Positions 7,347-16,255 of a stretch of 64,000 bases of DNA are shown one piece after another. The notes beneath the pieces were generated by a model that did no database searches, had not been told where the DNA came from, and saw only the letters and a program-made list of their open reading frames with translations. Source of the DNA: Escherichia coli (lineage in GTDB: Bacteria; Pseudomonadota; Gammaproteobacteria; Enterobacterales; Enterobacteriaceae). How positions within the stretch are numbered: position 1 is the stretch's first letter; the number at the start of each line of letters is the position of its first letter. Made by a program: the position numbers and the translations under genes. The stretch lies in assembly GCF_036507355.1 (NCBI RefSeq), contig NZ_AP027877.1. One strand, written 5' to 3'.

Positions 7347-8930
<1,584 letters not shown>

Positions 8931-8936
8931 CAGAAA

Positions 8937-9011
8937 AGAAAAAGGCCACTCGTGAGTGGCCAAAATTTCATCTCTGAATTCAGGGATGATGATAACAAAT
9001 GCGCGTCTTTC
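8937..9011 (-). ncRNA. micA: MicA (SraD) small regulatory RNA
   Basis: Minus-strand reading gives gaaagacgcgcatttgttatcatcatccctgaattcagagatgaaattttggccactcacgagtggccttttt, which matches the MicA sequence as I recall it; ends in a stem-loop plus U-tract. Confidence 0.8.
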
Positions 9012-9079
9012 ATATACTCAGACTCGCCTGGGAAGAAAGAGTTCAGAAAATTTTTAAAAAAATTACCGGAGGTGGCTAA

Positions 9080-9595
9080 ATGCCGTTGTTAGATAGCTTC
9101 ACAGTCGATCATACCCGGATGGAAGCGCCTGCAGTTCGGGTGGCGAAAACAATGAACACCCCGCATGGCGACGCAATCACCGTGTTCGATCTGCGCTTCT
9201 GCGTGCCGAACAAAGAAGTGATGCCAGAAAGAGGGATCCATACCCTGGAGCACCTGTTTGCTGGTTTTATGCGTAACCATCTTAACGGTAATGGTGTAGA
9301 GATTATCGATATCTCGCCAATGGGCTGCCGCACCGGTTTTTATATGAGTCTGATTGGTACGCCAGATGAGCAGCGTGTTGCTGATGCCTGGAAAGCGGCA
9401 ATGGAAGACGTGCTGAAAGTGCAGGATCAGAATCAGATCCCGGAACTGAACGTCTACCAGTGTGGCACTTACCAGATGCACTCGTTGCAGGAAGCGCAGG
9501 ATATTGCGCGTAGCATTCTGGAACGTGACGTGCGCATCAACAGCAACGAAGAACTGGCGCTGCCGAAAGAGAAGTTGCAGGAACTGCACATTTAG
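9080..9595 (+). CDS. luxS: S-ribosylhomocysteine lyase LuxS
   Basis: 171-aa [28 protein letters not shown]... with the HTLEH metal-binding motif. Confidence 0.96.
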
Positions 9596-9610
9596 TCAGT
9601 GGAACAAAAG

Positions 9611-9645
9611 AAGCCGGGCAGGTGACACCACCGCCCGGTTTTTTT
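9611..9645. terminator. Stem-loop terminator shared by convergent luxS and the HD-kinase gene
   Basis: aagccgggcaggtgacaccaccgcccggttttttt; hairpin followed by a T-run on the + strand. Confidence 0.65.
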
Positions 9646-10756
9646 ACCTTTCAATCACCCGATACTCCACGCTATGTGCTTCATCAGGTTGAGGAACTTC
9701 CAGCCTTGAGGCCATCCGCATCACGACCGCTTCAGGAACTGCATACTCGCGTCTGGCATTTTGCTGCTTCCATTGCGCCCATGGCACTTCAAGATAAACG
9801 ATTTTTACTCGTGCGCCGTAAGCCGTAAACAGGCTGATGAGCTGGCTACGCAGCTGGCGGGTAATGTTCGTTGCATTCCAGATGAACGGCTTTTTCTGGC
9901 GTAAAAAAACGCGCGCCTCTTCTTTTGCCTGTTGCACAATACGCCCGGTGGCGGTTTTGTCGTCCGGACTGGCATTGATTCGCCGCCGCATATCATCAAG
10001 GCTGATAACGTCCATTCCTTGGCACTGTTCATTGATATAGCGATCTTTGCCCATACCCGGTAAGCCACAGAGCAAAATAACCTCAAAAGGTTCAGCCTCC
10101 CAGGGAACAAAATCAGGAGAACTTTGCTCATGGGTCAGGTAATGCCAGCGTGCGGAATCAGACACGAACGAGCGCACTTTTCCCCAACACTGTTGCTCCT
10201 GGCAAAACAGCTCGAACAGATCGATGCGTTCCAGCATTGATTGCCGATCCGGGCTTTGGCGACCAAGCAGATCGGCACGAGCAAGCAAAGCGAGCAGACG
10301 CGTGTCGATGCGCATTGCAGCCGTGAGCAACAAACGCTCCGGTTCCGGACGTTCCAGTAACCATAGCGGTAACCCATGCAGACGCACCAGCGCAACAATT
10401 TGCTCGCGTAGCACGAACGGCGTAGGGATATCGCGCCATAAAATTTGTCGGGCCGTCAGCTCGCCCCGGCGTGCGTGGCCAGGCGACTGAATACGTCCGT
10501 TTTCCTTCACGGTAGTGCTGCGCTTTTCAACGTCATGCAATAACGCCGCCGCCCATAAAACTTCCTGCTGTTGAGCGGGGAGTTGCTGGAATACTGGCTG
10601 AGTAACAAGGGCGTTAAGCACCATTTCGGTATGCACGCCGACGTCACCTTCACCATGATGCTCCGGGTCTTGTGGCGTGTGATGCATCTCCTCAACCCAA
10701 CTGAAACGCTGGCGTAGTGTCGACCAGCGTTTATCGTCGGTAAGCTGCCAAATCAT
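9644..10756 (-). CDS. HD-domain phosphohydrolase fused to a P-loop polynucleotide-kinase-like domain (putative nucleic-acid end-healing enzyme)
   Basis: 370-aa ORF; N-terminal HD motifs (HH at ~33-34, H42, HD at ~74-75 in [10 protein letters not shown]); C-terminal Walker A GLPGMGKD (~231-238) and FIWNATN kinase-like motif; overlaps the upstream ligase gene by 4 bp. Confidence 0.7.
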
Positions 10757-11460
10757 GACTGTTCTCCATAAGCGAACTCATGGGCCATCCGCGCCCGTTG
10801 CCAGTGTCGTTTCCAGTGCACAGTGGTTTTGACATGATTTTTGCGCACATACTTGAAGACGTTATGCGAAAAGTCAGCGACGGAAAACGCATCACGATTC
10901 CGGCTGACAATGCCTTCCAGAGTACAGGGTTGCCCGGTTTGTGTATCCCAGGGATCGAATGCGCCGCGCGCATTGGTCAGCGCCAGAAAATCACGTTGCC
11001 AGTTTTTTTCATCATTCCCCGGCTGCGGGCCGGAGATTTCGGGAACGCAGGGGAAATCAAACAGGGCGGCGTAAAACTGCACCTCTTCCCAGTTCAGCCA
11101 CATATCCTGGCAGCGAACGGCAAACAGGTAAAAGTCCTGTTCCAGCGCGCGGTATTCAATGGAATGAACGGCGTAGAGATTTTCACCAAACAACTCCAGG
11201 TCGCCGAGATCGTTTTTCAGCAGTTGCCAACGCTGGCGAATTTTATAGGTCCATGCCGACTGCGTAGGCGCAGCATGGGAACGGGCAAACACACCGTAGC
11301 GGTTAAGGCAGTTATTTTCGCCGTCGAGTTTTTCTGTGTGCACCAATTGCGTGATGGCCTGTAAATCCTGCCAGTAATCGGCGTTAATGCGGTCATCGCT
11401 GGTGGTGCCAGGGGAGAAAGGATAATGCCAGGTTCTCCCGTATTTCCGTTGGGTATTCAT
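10753..11460 (-). CDS. Minimal ATP-dependent RNA/DNA-ligase-like nucleotidyltransferase (Rnl2-like NTase module)
   Basis: 235-aa ORF with ligase motifs I TEKLDGEN (candidate adenylylation lysine K44), III LFGENLY, IV LEGIV, V FKYVRK. Confidence 0.7.
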
Positions 11461-11685
11461 AATAATCCATTATTTTGTGTGTAATAAATGTACGCCCGCG
11501 AGGGTGCGAGTTATGGGGTTAAAAGAAAAATGTGAGTATCACCCGCGAAAGCGAGGGCGAAGGAAAAAGAGAATTAACAACCTGAGCGAATGCTCAGAAC
11601 CGGTTAATGGTAAATGGAAGAGTTTGGGGCGGCGAAAAGATACACCGAATGAGAGGATAAAACAACCGTTTACAGAATGAGCAAA

Positions 11686-11712
11686 TAAAAAGGGAGCCGC
11701 AGCTCCCTTTGA
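11686..11712 (-). terminator. Rho-independent terminator downstream of emrB
   Basis: Minus-strand gggagctgcggctccc hairpin followed by tttttatttg, 6 bp after the emrB stop. Confidence 0.7.
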
Positions 11713-11717
11713 CAACC

Positions 11718-13256
11718 TTAGTGCGCACCGCCTCCGCCGCCACCTGCGCCAAAGGGCGGTTTAGCAAACCACACCAGCCCCAGCAAGACGAGGAATATCC
11801 CGGCTGACATCCAGAAGATCTCATTTGCGGAAATAATCAGCCCCTGATTGGTGATCTGCTGGGCAATCCAGCCTGATGCCTGCTGTTGCGTCATCCCAAG
11901 CCCTTCCAGTTGACTGTACATCGCCTGGGCATTCGGGTTGAACGGGTTTACCGACTCGGTTAACTGCGCATGGTGCATCGACTCGCGGTTGGTCCACATG
12001 GTTGTGGTTATCGACGTGCCGATAGACCCCGCCAGCGTACGCGTAAAGTTGGAGAGGCTCGATGCCGCCGCCAGTCGTTCCGGTGGCAAACCAGACAGCG
12101 TAATGGTGGTCAGCGGCATAAAGAAGCAGGCCACCGCAAACCCCTGGATAAACTGCGGCCAGGCCGACGCGCCAAAATCCATACCTGGTTCAAAGGTATA
12201 GGCACGCCAGTAGAAGCAGACGGCATACATAATAAAGCTGAAGGTTACCAGTCGGCGCATATCCAGTTTATGCGCGAAGCGGCCGATAATCGGCGACAGT
12301 ATCACTGGAATAATCCCTACCGGCGCAGAGGCCAAACCTGCCCAGGTCGCCGTGTAACCGTAGACCTCCTGCAACAACTGCGGCAGCAGAACAATCGCGC
12401 CGAAGTAGAGCATATACGCGAGGCTGATACACAAACAGCCGATGGTGAAGTTGCGCGACTTAAACAACGACAGATCGACTATCGGGTTATCGTCGGTCAG
12501 CTCCCAGACAATCAGGAAGCAGATAGCCACCACCGCCACCACGGTAAGGATGATAATTTCCTGTGATGAAAACCAGTCCAGCTCTTTACCGCGGTCGAGC
12601 ATAATCTGCAGGCTGCCTATACCAATAACCAGCAGTGCCAGCCCCACGGCATCAATCCGCCGCCGTTCGGTGCGGGTTTCGCGTCCGCGCAGAGTTTGCA
12701 GTGTCATCAACACCACCGCCACGCCAATCGGCACGTTGATGAAGAATATCCAGCCCCAGTGGTAATTATCGCTGATATACCCGCCGAGGATTGGGCCGCA
12801 AATTGGCGCGACAATCACCGTCATCGACCACAACGCCAGCGCGATTGAGCGTTTGGCTGGCGGGTAATTATTCAGCAATAGACTTTGCGAAAGCGGGATC
12901 AACGGCCCGGCGACAATCCCCTGAATCACGCGGAAGAAGATCAGCATATTCAGGCTGCTGGAGACACCACACGCCCACGACGCAATAGCAAAGGCGATGG
13001 TTGACCAGAGGAACAGTTTCACTTCCCCGACGCGCTTTGCCAGCCAGCCGGTAAGCGGGATCGAGATGGCATTTGCCACCCCGAAAGAAGTGATTACCCA
13101 CGTTCCCTGGCTGAGCGATGAGCCCAGATTCCCGGCGATAGTGGGGATCGCCACGTTAGCAATGGTGGAGTCCAGCACCTGCATGAATGTCGCCAGTGAC
13201 AGCGCAATCGTCATAATGACCAGTTGCGCGCCTTCCAGCGGTTTTTGCTGTTGCAT
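11718..13256 (-). CDS. emrB: Multidrug efflux MFS transporter EmrB
   Basis: ORF translation MQQQKPLEGAQLVIMTIALSLATFMQVLDSTIANVAIPTIAG...; 14-TMS MFS. Confidence 0.95.
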   Translation of the reverse strand: MQQQKPLEGAQLVIMTIALSLATFMQVLDSTIANVAIPTIAGNLGSSLSQGTWVITSFGVANAISIPLTGWLAKRVGEVKLFLWSTIAFAIASWACGVSSSLNMLIFFRVIQGIVAGPLIPLSQSLLLNNYPPAKRSIALALWSMTVIVAPICGPILGGYISDNYHWGWIFFINVPIGVAVVLMTLQTLRGRETRTERRRIDAVGLALLVIGIGSLQIMLDRGKELDWFSSQEIIILTVVAVVAICFLIVWELTDDNPIVDLSLFKSRNFTIGCLCISLAYMLYFGAIVLLPQLLQEVYGYTATWAGLASAPVGIIPVILSPIIGRFAHKLDMRRLVTFSFIMYAVCFYWRAYTFEPGMDFGASAWPQFIQGFAVACFFMPLTTITLSGLPPERLAAASSLSNFTRTLAGSIGTSITTTMWTNRESMHHAQLTESVNPFNPNAQAMYSQLEGLGMTQQQASGWIAQQITNQGLIISANEIFWMSAGIFLVLLGLVWFAKPPFGAGGGGGGAH

Positions 13257-13272
13257 CACACGCACCTCTGGA

Positions 13273-14445
13273 TTAGCCAGCGTTAGCTTTTACGATATCG
13301 TCGATCAGTTTATTGACAGGTGCCAGGCTGATTTCACGCGCGGTGCTTACCGCTACCGGAGTGGAACGTACTTTATTTGCCAGTACCTGACCGTCACGGT
13401 TAGTGGTATTGACGCTCACCAGCGTGGATAAACCGATACGCAGCGGGTATTGCTCCAGCTGTTTTTGGTCCAGTTCGATACGAACAGGCAGACGCTGAAC
13501 GACTTTGATCCAGTTACCAGTCGCATTTTGCGCCGGAAGCAGTGAGAACGCGCTACCTGTGCCCATATCCAGACCAACCACTTTACCGGTGTATTTCACA
13601 TCATCGCCGTAAATATCGGTGGTGATAGTGACCGGCTGACCGATACGCATATTGGCAATCTGCGTCTCTTTAAAGTTGGCATCCACCCACATATTGGTGG
13701 CTGGAACGACCGCCATCAGCGGCGTCGTTGGGCTAATTTGCGCCCCAGGCTGTACCGCGCGGCGGGAGACATAACCGGTCATCGGACTGACAATACGAGT
13801 ACGCTCCAGCGCCAGCCAGGCGTTACGTACTTCGGTGGCAGCCTGTTGCACGGCAGGCTGATCTTCCAGTTTAGTCCCCAGAATCATCGCCTGATTGGCA
13901 TTGTATTGTTGAATCGCGACGTCCAGTTGCGCCTGGGCACTGGTAACGGCGTCGCGGGCGTGTTGCAGCTCTTCGCGACCAATCAGGTTGGCATTGCCCA
14001 GCGGCACACGGCGGTTGTAGTCGCTTTGTGCTTTCGCGAGGGCGATTTTTTGCACCTCAATATTCGCCTGCAACTGTTTGCTGTTAATCATCAGCTGGTG
14101 GGTTTGGCGAACGCTGGAAGCCAGTGCAGTTTTGGCTTTTTCAAACGCCTGGCGAGCATCTGTCGGGTCGAGAGTGACCAGCACGTCGCCTTCTTTTACA
14201 AAATCGGTGTTATCGGCCCAGACTTTCGTCACGCTGCCAGACACCTGAGACATAATTTGAATTTGATTCCCTGCCACGTATGCGTCATCGGTTTCTTCGA
14301 AGTGACGCAGTACCAAAAACCAATAAATCCCTATCGCTACGGCAATAATTATAAAGAGCAAGGTGAGAAGGAGGAGCAGACGCTTACGTTTGCCGCTCTT
14401 CTTTACCGGTTGCTGCGGGGTTTGAGTCTCCGCATTTGCGCTCAT
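13273..14445 (-). CDS. emrA: Multidrug efflux periplasmic adaptor EmrA
   Basis: ORF translation ...MSANAETQTPQQPVKKSGKRKRLLLL...; HlyD-family adaptor. Confidence 0.95.
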   Translation of the reverse strand: MSANAETQTPQQPVKKSGKRKRLLLLLTLLFIIIAVAIGIYWFLVLRHFEETDDAYVAGNQIQIMSQVSGSVTKVWADNTDFVKEGDVLVTLDPTDARQAFEKAKTALASSVRQTHQLMINSKQLQANIEVQKIALAKAQSDYNRRVPLGNANLIGREELQHARDAVTSAQAQLDVAIQQYNANQAMILGTKLEDQPAVQQAATEVRNAWLALERTRIVSPMTGYVSRRAVQPGAQISPTTPLMAVVPATNMWVDANFKETQIANMRIGQPVTITTDIYGDDVKYTGKVVGLDMGTGSAFSLLPAQNATGNWIKVVQRLPVRIELDQKQLEQYPLRIGLSTLVSVNTTNRDGQVLANKVRSTPVAVSTAREISLAPVNKLIDDIVKANAG

Positions 14446-14571
14446 ATTGTTCTCCACGATCTTCTTAACTCATCGGCTGAGCCGACCTGCTTGCCAAAAA
14501 GGCCAGCATGTTGCGATGCTGGCCAGTCATTTTTTCTTTTATAAATCTGGATTTTTGAGCGAGATGACGCG

Positions 14572-15102
14572 TTAGCTCATCGCTTCGAGAACCACACCGT
14601 CTTGTTCCATCTGGTCGAGACGGGAGAGCAATTTGCGGGTGATTTGCTCGAGCTGATCTTTTTCTGTTGTGCTGAGCGCGGACCAGAGTTGATGCAGGCA
14701 GTTATGCTGCGGTGGTAAAACCTCGCGCAAAAACTCGTGACCTTTTTCCGTTAATTGCAGATGCAGGCAGCGGCGATCGTTATCGCTTTCACGACGTTCG
14801 ATCCAACCGCGTTTTTCCAGTTCATCGGCAATACGCGTCGCGTTGGTACGGGATGATCCAAGAGCACAACTTAATTCAGAAGGCTGAATACTGTGGTTTT
14901 CCTGAGACTCCAGCGTAATCAACGCCATAAACAACGTCTCGTTAATCCCCTGAGCCTTCAGCATTTTATTGCGGTTCTCCAGCAGCTTGCTTTGCATGTG
15001 CATGCAAAGACGAGTCAGAAGGATCTCCTGATAAGGAAAATCTTCGTGGCGGCTGGCGCGAAATTTTAGCATTTGTTCAATGGGCGTAAACGAACTATCC
15101 AT
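14572..15102 (-). CDS. mprA: MarR-family repressor MprA (EmrR)
   Basis: 176-aa [49 protein letters not shown]... Confidence 0.95.
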
Positions 15103-15192
15103 TTGGGTATGACCTCATTAATTTCAGCCGATATAGTAACGACAGTTACAAATAAAGTAAATGTATTGTTTTAGAAAAATGATTCTTGTGGG

Positions 15193-15528
15193 TTATATAA
15201 TCGCCATCACTTTCCAGGCGAGCCCATAGGCCAGCGCACTAAGCAGTGTTGGGATGATAATGCTGCGTGTTTTATAGAAACTGGCACCCAGTACCGCGAA
15301 GCCGACCAGTGTGGGCACGAAACGGCGTGTATCGTGCATCACTTCTGGTGCGGTAGAGACAACCAGCAGAGCGCATATCGAGGCGATGCCAATGGTGTCG
15401 AGCAAAATACCTACCGCGCCACGTTTGGTTGGGCGGGCATTACCCACACGCAGGCGCAGCGGCAAATAGCGGAAGCAATAATTCGCCGCGCCAACCAGTA
15501 ACCCAAGCAGCAGAACCTCATAGCTCAT
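15193..15528 (-). CDS. ygaH: Branched-chain amino acid exporter small subunit (AzlD-like) YgaH
   Basis: 111-aa hydrophobic ORF overlapping ygaZ. Confidence 0.85.
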
Positions 15529-16255
15529 CGGGCGCTCCTTGCCAGAATGCCTGGATTAACGCAGTGAGGCAGCCACAGACAATGCCTGCCAGAATGGCGA
15601 CGGGAATAGAAAATAGCGTTACGCCTGCAAGGGCACCAACTAACGCTGCGGTAACGCAAAGAGACTGTTTGCGCTGGAAAGAGGCGAGCAGGAAACTCAT
15701 AAAGAGTGCCGGAAGCATAAAACCTAATGCAGCTTCAACGGCGGGATAACCTTGCAGCAAGCCGCTGCCGGAGAATGCCCCTATTACCGTACCAAATACC
15801 CACGATGACCATGAACTGAAGGCAATGCCGATCATCCAGTTCTCGCTCCAGCGGCGATTATTGCGTACCAGTTTTGCGGTGGCGGCGGCAAAAACCTCAT
15901 CCGTCAGGCCAAACGCCCATAGGGCGGTTTTCGATTTTTGCAGACGCTGAATAATACGGCTACGCAGTGACGGGCCATACAAAACATGGCGAACATCCAT
16001 TGCCATGACGGTCAGTGCAGCAACCCACAAACTACTCCCTGCTGCCAGCATCGCGGTAATGACGAACTGGCTCGCGCCTGCATAAATGATGCAGGAGAAA
16101 AAAACGCTTTCGAGAGGAGAGAATCCCAGACGGGTCGCATTCAGACCGAACGCAAAGGCCACCGGAATATAACTAATAACAATCGGTAAACTGTCTTTGC
16201 ATCCTTCCATGAAGGTCGCCGAACCAGGAGCAGGCTGTGGAGTAGGGCTTTCCAT
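15518..16255 (-). CDS. ygaZ: Branched-chain amino acid exporter large subunit (AzlC-like) YgaZ
   Basis: 245-aa membrane ORF upstream of and overlapping ygaH. Confidence 0.85.

Follow-up and report, generated by a model that had tools for sequence, protein, structure and literature searches.

A predicted control region for the HD-Pnk/LIG repair cassette between emrB and luxS in Escherichia coli: terminator, weak sigma-70-type promoter and structured leader

The emrB-luxS locus and its repair cassette

The window, a 64,000-nt stretch of E. coli contig NZ_AP027877.1 (assembly GCF_036507355.1), carries yqaB, yqaA, gshA (7374-8930, plus strand), the MicA sRNA gene (8940-9011, minus strand; RF00078, 83.9 bits), which lies between gshA and luxS as in K-12, and luxS (9080-9595, plus strand). 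On the minus strand, these are followed by genes for a 370-aa kinase-type protein and a 235-aa RNA-ligase-family protein and by emrB, emrA and emrR. The RNA ligase (10753-11460, minus strand, ATG at 11460) matches PF09414 with E = 8e-28, and its ORF overlaps that of the 370-aa protein (9644-10756, minus strand) by 4 nt, giving an operon span of 9644..11460. We classed the latter as an HD-Pnk-type end-healing enzyme, with an AAA_33/Pnkp-type P-loop kinase match at its C-terminus (residues 225-355) and weak HD/HDIG domain matches at its N-terminus (residues 13-105). Judged by these predicted domains, the gene pair is the HD-Pnk/LIG arrangement described for Runella slithyformis, in which an N-terminal HD phosphoesterase is fused to a C-terminal P-loop 5'-OH kinase and the cluster also contains Tpt1 and an MTase-HIT gene (Munir & Shuman 2017, described in PMC6097658). 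The two genes and their order are shared by both systems, as is the overlap of the ligase ORF with the HD-Pnk start; the ligase is 60-70% identical between Enterobacterales and Bacteroidota. Where the Runella cluster has extra genes, E. coli has an insert of two genes, placed between emrB and luxS. The upstream control region of the Runella cluster and its regulation are not described in PMC6097658, which is focused on the enzymes.

The downstream end of the cassette unit is closed by a bidirectional terminator (9607..9645) common to luxS on the plus strand and HD-Pnk on the minus strand; folding gave -26 kcal/mol with a U7 tail for the plus strand and -20.4 kcal/mol with a CUUCUUUUGUU tail for the minus strand. 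At the upstream end, 257 bp separate the ligase ATG from emrB (11718-13265, minus strand; stop TAA at 11718-11720), and approximately 225 bp of this gap lie past the emrB terminator, in agreement with an earlier note on this DNA that had described a non-coding stretch of about this length. The same note had called the stretch AT-rich, which was overstated, as the GC content of 11461-11685 is 42.7% (42.7-44% for the gap) against 49.6% for the whole window, only the 15th percentile of 225-nt windows. Strand asymmetry is the stronger compositional feature of the gap, the minus-strand transcript being C-rich and G-poor. A small protein gene in the gap was rejected: amino acids are unconserved, and orthologs differ by many non-3n indels, which speaks against a conserved protein-coding ORF.

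Of 5,426 complete E. coli genomes, 998 have the cassette; the 257-bp gap was likewise counted in exactly 998, with one copy each and none on the plasmids of these complete genomes. Carriers include the B2-type strains ST131, NC101 and CFT073 as well as APEC O2:K1:H7 and O145. In K-12, both cassette and gap are absent, and only 63 bp with one shared hairpin lie between the stop codons of emrB and luxS, at which homology between the window and K-12 ends on either side. The absence of the gap from K-12, together with its exact co-occurrence with the cassette in the 998 genomes, links it to the cassette; by this comparison of sequences, the gap belongs to the cassette and not to emrB. The single bidirectional hairpin of K-12 (L001:356-418) is thus set against 2.1 kb with two different terminators (9596-9650 and 11683-11720) in the cassette haplotype. 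As in K-12, transcription of emrRAB would end directly after the emrB stop codon, but the two separate terminators of the cassette haplotype, one after emrB and one between luxS and hd-pnk, are not homologous to the K-12 hairpin.

A scan of species-representative genomes showed the ligase/HD-Pnk pair kept in all 80 loci, from Enterobacterales to Bacteroidota, with ligase identities of 60-98%. The layout of emrB, gap, lig, hd-pnk (and luxS) was found in six other enterobacterial genera, represented by Klebsiella spallanzanii, Kosakonia, Phytobacter (three species), Superficieibacter (two species), Enterobacter sp. and a MAG, with gaps of 254-414 bp that are approximately 70-76% identical to that of the window. 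Gap copies within Escherichia are 93-99% identical. Searches of plasmid and phage collections found neither cassette nor gap, and PADLOC gave no defence-system match. We rejected the idea that the gap is a repeat or mobile element because it is single-copy in each genome and absent from the plasmid and phage collections.

In ST131, NC101 and O145 RM9872, the cassette is intact. The ligase gene of CFT073 (L084:3960-4657; NC_004431.1 3094959-3095656) is annotated as a frameshifted pseudogene, and that of strain C325 (hit H16) is interrupted by an IS3-family element, which indicates that the cassette is dispensable and decaying in some lineages. In Serratia sp. H1w (L014:2218-5816), rtcB (PF01139), a prfH-like release-factor gene (RF-1 domain, GGQ), the ligase and HD-Pnk follow one another on one strand; the release-factor gene and the ligase are no more than about 56 nt and a hairpin apart, and there is no leader. 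As read from gene content, this arrangement ties the cassette physically to an RtcB/PrfH ribosome-repair module.

Termination of emrB and the promoter footprint

All elements of the gap described below are on the minus strand. T1, the predicted intrinsic terminator of emrB (11683..11710), lies 8 nt past the emrB stop codon and consists of a stem-loop (11689-11710) with a G+C-rich 9-bp stem and a U tract (11683-11688), the stem being followed by TTTTTATTT (to 11683; UUUUUAUUU). A strong hairpin/U-tract terminator after emrB and insulation of the ligase genes from emrAB had both been proposed before, and both proposals stood up to comparison. T1 was detected by the terminator scan (folding energy -15.7 kcal/mol, z = -2.8) and is kept in 12 of 12 orthologs with folding energies from -11.8 to -15.7 kcal/mol; 97.9% of cells in its aligned stem are paired and three pairs have changed on both sides, which none of 500 shuffles matched. 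Predicted insulation of the cassette by this strong, conserved and compensated terminator is well supported. In Superficieibacter electus (L012:3587-3780), REP-like palindromic repeats lengthen the emrB-lig gap upstream of T1, which shows that insertions are tolerated between emrB and T1, whereas the junction between T1 and the promoter stays tight.

Our alignment comprised 12 orthologous gaps that are approximately 70-97% identical, but these represent only about nine distinct haplotypes from genera that are related, and common ancestry therefore makes the conservation look higher than it is. Directly after T1, a putative -35 hexamer TTGTTT (11660..11665) and a putative -10 hexamer TATCTT (11637..11642) are spaced by exactly 17 bp in all 12 orthologs, and the spacer sequence diverges. 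The TTG of the -35 hexamer is invariant in the 12 (TTGCAA in Superficieibacter and Enterobacter sp.), as are the T, A, T and final T of the -10 hexamer (TATTAT or TATTCT elsewhere), and these positions are those that weigh most for sigma-70 (TTG; -12T, -11A, -7T). A G+C-rich discriminator with the predicted transcription start follows at 11626..11636; the start that we infer, 7 nt past the -10 hexamer, is a G at about 11630 inside an invariant CCGCCCC (CCG invariant), corresponding to about 3,094,789 in CFT073 (NC_004431.1).

Promoter prediction, which the earlier note had named as a check, gave a divided answer. With a simple sigma-70 weight matrix, the TTG-17-TAT pair was the top or near-top sense-strand site in every ortholog, at the same alignment columns, and no conserved site appeared in the 12 orthologs on the other strand or between the ATG and the downstream hairpin H2. 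When gap-free alignment columns were shuffled, 0 of 500 trials reached the observed minimum site score across all 12. A stricter sigma-70 scan called no promoter in the window, although it found the homologous site in a Superficieibacter ortholog (L011; TTGCAA, 17 bp, TATTAT). The Escherichia hexamers are weak, with three of six matches for the -35 and four of six for the -10. Among six Escherichia haplotypes, SNPs fall six times in the spacer and not once in either hexamer, the discriminator or the H2 core.

A variant haplotype offers a separate view of the promoter. A metagenome search with the pattern CTTCCATTYACM...CCGGT lacked specificity, with only 4 real loci among 120, and gained one useful variant, L154 (6183-8409), which is shared by five complete E. 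coli genomes (AH02, AH04, CT01, CX08 and CX12; hits H64-H68). Here, emrB and the ligase leader are set apart by a segment of about 2 kb that carries, on the opposite strand, a DKNYY-domain gene. In this rare haplotype, another terminator follows emrB and only a degenerate relic of T1 is left; both hexamers (-35 and -10), H2 and the remaining leader are retained. With the opposite-strand gene in between, lig is not plausibly transcribed by read-through from emrB in this haplotype. Copies of IS1 and IS5 lie near the DKNYY segment in three of the genomes.

Taken together, the comparison supports the existence of a weak sigma-70-type promoter that would serve the ligase operon, and lig and hd-pnk very probably form a transcription unit of their own. 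The earlier note had assigned the whole of 11461-11717 to a promoter region under its own regulation, possibly by SOS or another stress signal. An own promoter is what the comparison favours, with TTG-17-TAT in 12 of 12 orthologs and in the DKNYY variant, but the predicted promoter takes up only about 30 bp at the emrB-proximal end, and the other 170 nt or so are a predicted transcribed, structured leader. Regulation by a named stress regulator was not indicated, all four tests being negative. For LexA, the sole CTG-N10-CAG in the gap is the H2 stem in Escherichia, with a G+C-rich centre and with N11-N12 spacing in other genera; SOS control was rejected since there is no conserved box of this form with an A/T-rich centre. 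The best matches to the sigma-54 element TGGCAC-N5-TTGC (-24/-12) reach 6-8 of 12 positions and none is conserved, and no sigma-32 or sigma-E sites were found in the gap. If regulation exists, the predicted anatomy points to steps after initiation. Transcript or start-site data sought in the literature on cassette-bearing strains yielded nothing usable, and the supplements of a CFT073 sigma-70 ChIP-seq and predicted-TSS paper do not mention the locus.

Elements of the leader and leaders in other taxa

The first element past the predicted start is a conserved single-stranded C/U block, CTCTTCCATTTACC (CUUCCAUUYACC; 11609..11622), which is nearly invariant in 9 of 12 orthologs. It carries UCCAUU, which by reading of the sequence is complementary to AAUGGA of the ribosome-binding block, and this complementarity may have a functional role. 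No enriched complementarity to the C/U block was found when targets were sought within the window.

H2, a terminator-like hairpin, follows at 11564..11608, with a core stem-loop at 11581-11598, a lower stem AUUAAC/GUUAAU and a U-rich tail at 11564-11580. The 7-bp hairpin has a folding energy of -12.7 kcal/mol (z = -4.2), and the scan accepted it as terminator-like in the window as well as in Phytobacter, Superficieibacter and Enterobacter sp., that is, in four genera. Its U tract is interrupted (GUUGUUAAUU). Covariation across the genera is evident here too: 98.8% of cells are paired and three pairs have changed on both sides. For T1 and H2 jointly, 98.3% of cells are paired and six pairs have changed on both sides, with no match in 500 shuffles.

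Downstream of the H2 core, a C-rich, G-poor stretch (11500..11577) has 27 C and 8 G in 78 nt and resembles a Rho-loading site; its C/G ratio of 3.1 lies above the 99th percentile of the 78-nt windows of the whole stretch, and the orthologs range from 2.0 to 3.8. A role for Rho at this stretch may be suggested by its composition. Two further hairpins lie before the start codon. H3 (CGCCC...GGGUG; 11539..11560) has a counterpart at the equivalent place in 12 of 12 orthologs, built from differing sequences (CACCC/GGGUG, GCCC/GGGC, CCCG/CGGG and UUUCCCG/CGGGAAA). H4 (11493..11510), a G+C-rich imperfect palindrome or hairpin, persists in 9 of 12 orthologs, with losses in L011, L012 and L018; in an alternative fold from RNAalifold, its GGGCG pairs with CGCCC at the 5' end of the leader. 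The leader ends in the ribosome-binding block AAATAATGGATTATT (AAUAAUGGAUUAUY; 11461..11475), which is conserved in 11 of 12 orthologs and offers a weak Shine-Dalgarno GGA at 11466-11468. Taken whole, the 200 nt of leader have a fold only modestly more stable than that of shuffled sequence (z = -2.3).

No family came out of Rfam scans that covered the window, the gap and several leaders of orthologs, and Pedo-repair (RF01715) was not matched. Nothing reached E <= 1 in 9000-16000; at E <= 10, the region 11440-11730 gave only sub-threshold chance matches, such as STnc290 on T1 (18.9 bits against a gathering score of 60).

Leaders of lig in other taxa show a different signature. The heptamer ATGTAAT occurs 30-250 nt upstream of the ligase ATG, mostly at about -81 to -127, in 44 of 80 loci against 2.4 expected by chance. 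These loci span 14 of 33 genus-level groups in several phyla and include Xenorhabdus, Providencia, Proteus, a Neisseriaceae MAG, Chitinophaga, Mucilaginibacter, Pedobacter, Raineya, Dysgonomonas, Prevotella and Longitalea (examples within L020-L082 are L043:3890-4003, L034:3890-4003, L035:3800-4003 and L073:3880-4003); Cytophagales have TTGTAAT, ATGTGA or TTTTAAT instead. The heptamer, which is followed by an adjoining helix enclosing a hairpin, either lies at the end of mini-ORFs or is itself a start-stop (AUG UAA). In Cytophagales, the ORFs are 4 codons long and their stop is conserved as UAA or UGA, Providencia has a 9-codon MRP... ORF, and the bare AUG UAA is found in Bacteroidota (Chitinophaga, Pedobacter and Bacteroidales). 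Start-stops inside genes of E. coli are a described curiosity (bioRxiv 10.1101/520783). Rfam has no family for these leaders, and (A/U)UGUAAU may mark an undescribed leader class for HD-Pnk/LIG operons. In Budvicia, Pragia and Limnobaculum (L048, L062, L031, L054 and L058), a conserved leader ORF lies about 200-130 nt upstream of lig and begins ATG CGN CCG/ACG/GCG CCT (MRPPSKYHRV and similar). Its M-R-P start is shared with the Providencia mini-ORF although the Arg codons differ, a hint of a conserved leader peptide.

The E. coli-type leader resembles the (A/U)UGUAAU leaders of Xenorhabdus, Providencia, Chitinophaga, Pedobacter, Prevotella and others in its position 5' of lig and hd-pnk and in a similar logic, in which a C/U-rich arm is combined with a hairpin, often trailed by a U run, and with a purine arm located at the start site. 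Unlike them, the window has no heptamer, start-stop or mini-ORF of this kind, and none of the 12 E. coli-type gaps has the heptamer in the interval 80-250 nt upstream of the lig ATG. Homology between the two types was rejected, as nhmmer profiles gave no match and left the by-eye resemblance unsupported.

A putative mechanism and its alternatives

Overall, we consider it fairly probable that the gap controls an accessory, self-contained unit, lig followed by hd-pnk, and that it comprises T1, a weak sigma-70 promoter and a structured leader with an early terminator. T1 would stop transcription of emrRAB and thereby insulate the cassette, and its T tract may serve as A/T-rich upstream DNA for the weak promoter directly past it. 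Transcription would begin at about 11630 and produce a 5' leader of approximately 170 nt, in which the C/U-rich single strand, H2 (about +25 to +67), the C-rich stretch, two hairpins and the weak ribosome-binding site would follow in this order. Most of the control would then be exerted after initiation: H2 may end a share of transcripts early and release a leader RNA some 65-70 nt long, the C-rich stretch may be a site of Rho action, and translation would initiate poorly from the weak site.

The same elements could instead be read as a stand-alone sRNA gene, in which the promoter and H2 would produce an RNA of about 65-70 nt with a C/U-rich seed at its 5' end, and the ligase would be transcribed by read-through of H2 or from an unrecognised downstream promoter. 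The distance of H2 from the promoter (about 25-67 nt) and its acceptance by the terminator scan in four genera would suit such a gene, as would the seed-like position of the most conserved unpaired block (CUUCCAUUCACC) between promoter and H2 and the lack of a conserved promoter between H2 and the ATG. However, the U tract of H2 is interrupted, neither an Rfam family nor an enriched target in the window came to light, and the element always lies upstream of lig on the same strand, where a leader fits equally well. We therefore regard an sRNA gene as unlikely, although it overlaps the control-region reading rather than excluding it.

Another possibility is that there is no independent promoter and that lig is transcribed by leakage through T1 from emrRAB. 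The conserved blocks would then be intercistronic RNA elements, including an upstream ORF of 13 codons (11603-11645; GTG at 11643-11645 to TAA at 11603-11605) whose terminating ribosome would mask H2 and allow read-through. This frame is open in 8 of 12 orthologs, with a TAA, TAG or TGA stop directly before the invariant CCGGT of H2; it starts with ATG in variant L154, and its 42-nt length is held in Kosakonia and Phytobacter by two compensating 1-nt indels. The peptide would contain Tyr, Asn and His codons, and short ORFs precede lig in other taxa as well. Against this, the frame has no Shine-Dalgarno sequence, its amino acids are unconserved because a conserved nucleotide block is read in different frames, and 4 of 12 orthologs have GCG for GTG and no in-frame stop yet keep TTG-17-TAT. 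Other frames are open too, since the region is pyrimidine-rich and stop-free, and the 13-codon frame is probably a chance product of such a region. Were it real, its GTG would be incompatible with the predicted start at about 11630. Leakage as such is opposed by the strength of T1 and by the persistence of the elements in the DKNYY variant, where an opposite-strand gene blocks transcription from emrB, and it leaves the invariant TTG and the fixed 17-bp spacing unexplained. Expression by leakage from emrRAB, with no independent promoter, is improbable.

That the gap beyond T1 is a neutral spacer conserved through shared ancestry is very improbable, for although independent lineages are few and the Escherichia copies nearly identical, the identity of about 70% between genera is sharply patterned, with invariant hexamer positions beside a diverged spacer and compensatory changes in the stems, and Escherichia SNPs avoid the hexamers and H2.

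Returning to the control-region reading, the order of terminator, promoter and leader is ordinary bacterial gene architecture. In the leaders of pyrBI, mgtA, corA and rho, transcription is attenuated in the 5' UTR by an early intrinsic terminator or by Rho. The lig leader is like these in having a predicted promoter, a terminator-like hairpin within the first 70 nt or so, a long 5' UTR rich in C and poor in G, and a weak ribosome-binding site. Unlike for them, our search of it identified no antiterminator alternative to H2, no ligand-binding fold and no clear leader peptide; lacking an antiterminator, "regulated attenuation" is so far without a mechanism. The rtcBA RNA-repair operon is controlled by RtcR and sigma-54 and responds to RNA or translation damage. 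The HD-Pnk/LIG unit resembles rtcBA as an accessory RNA-repair operon with dedicated control but differs in having no -24/-12 element and no adjacent regulator gene, and it shows a sigma-70-type footprint and a structured leader instead.

A more ambitious proposal is that the leader is a sensor of RNA or translation damage. A ribosome reading the short frame, or the C/U block, would decide whether H2 forms, so that repair would be induced when particular tRNAs or ribosomes are damaged, and the E. coli leader would be the local version of an undescribed cross-phylum rule for mini-ORF or start-stop leaders built on (A/U)UGUAAU. We hold this to be a long shot.

The HD-Pnk/LIG pair is a repair cassette that has been studied biochemically but is physiologically unexplained, and the natural substrate of its ligase is unknown (PMC6097658). 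About one-fifth of E. coli carry it. If the cassette is a separate unit with a promoter of about 30 bp and a conserved early-terminator leader, these elements would provide concrete handles for finding the inducer, and the inducing signal would be the most direct route to the substrate of the cassette.
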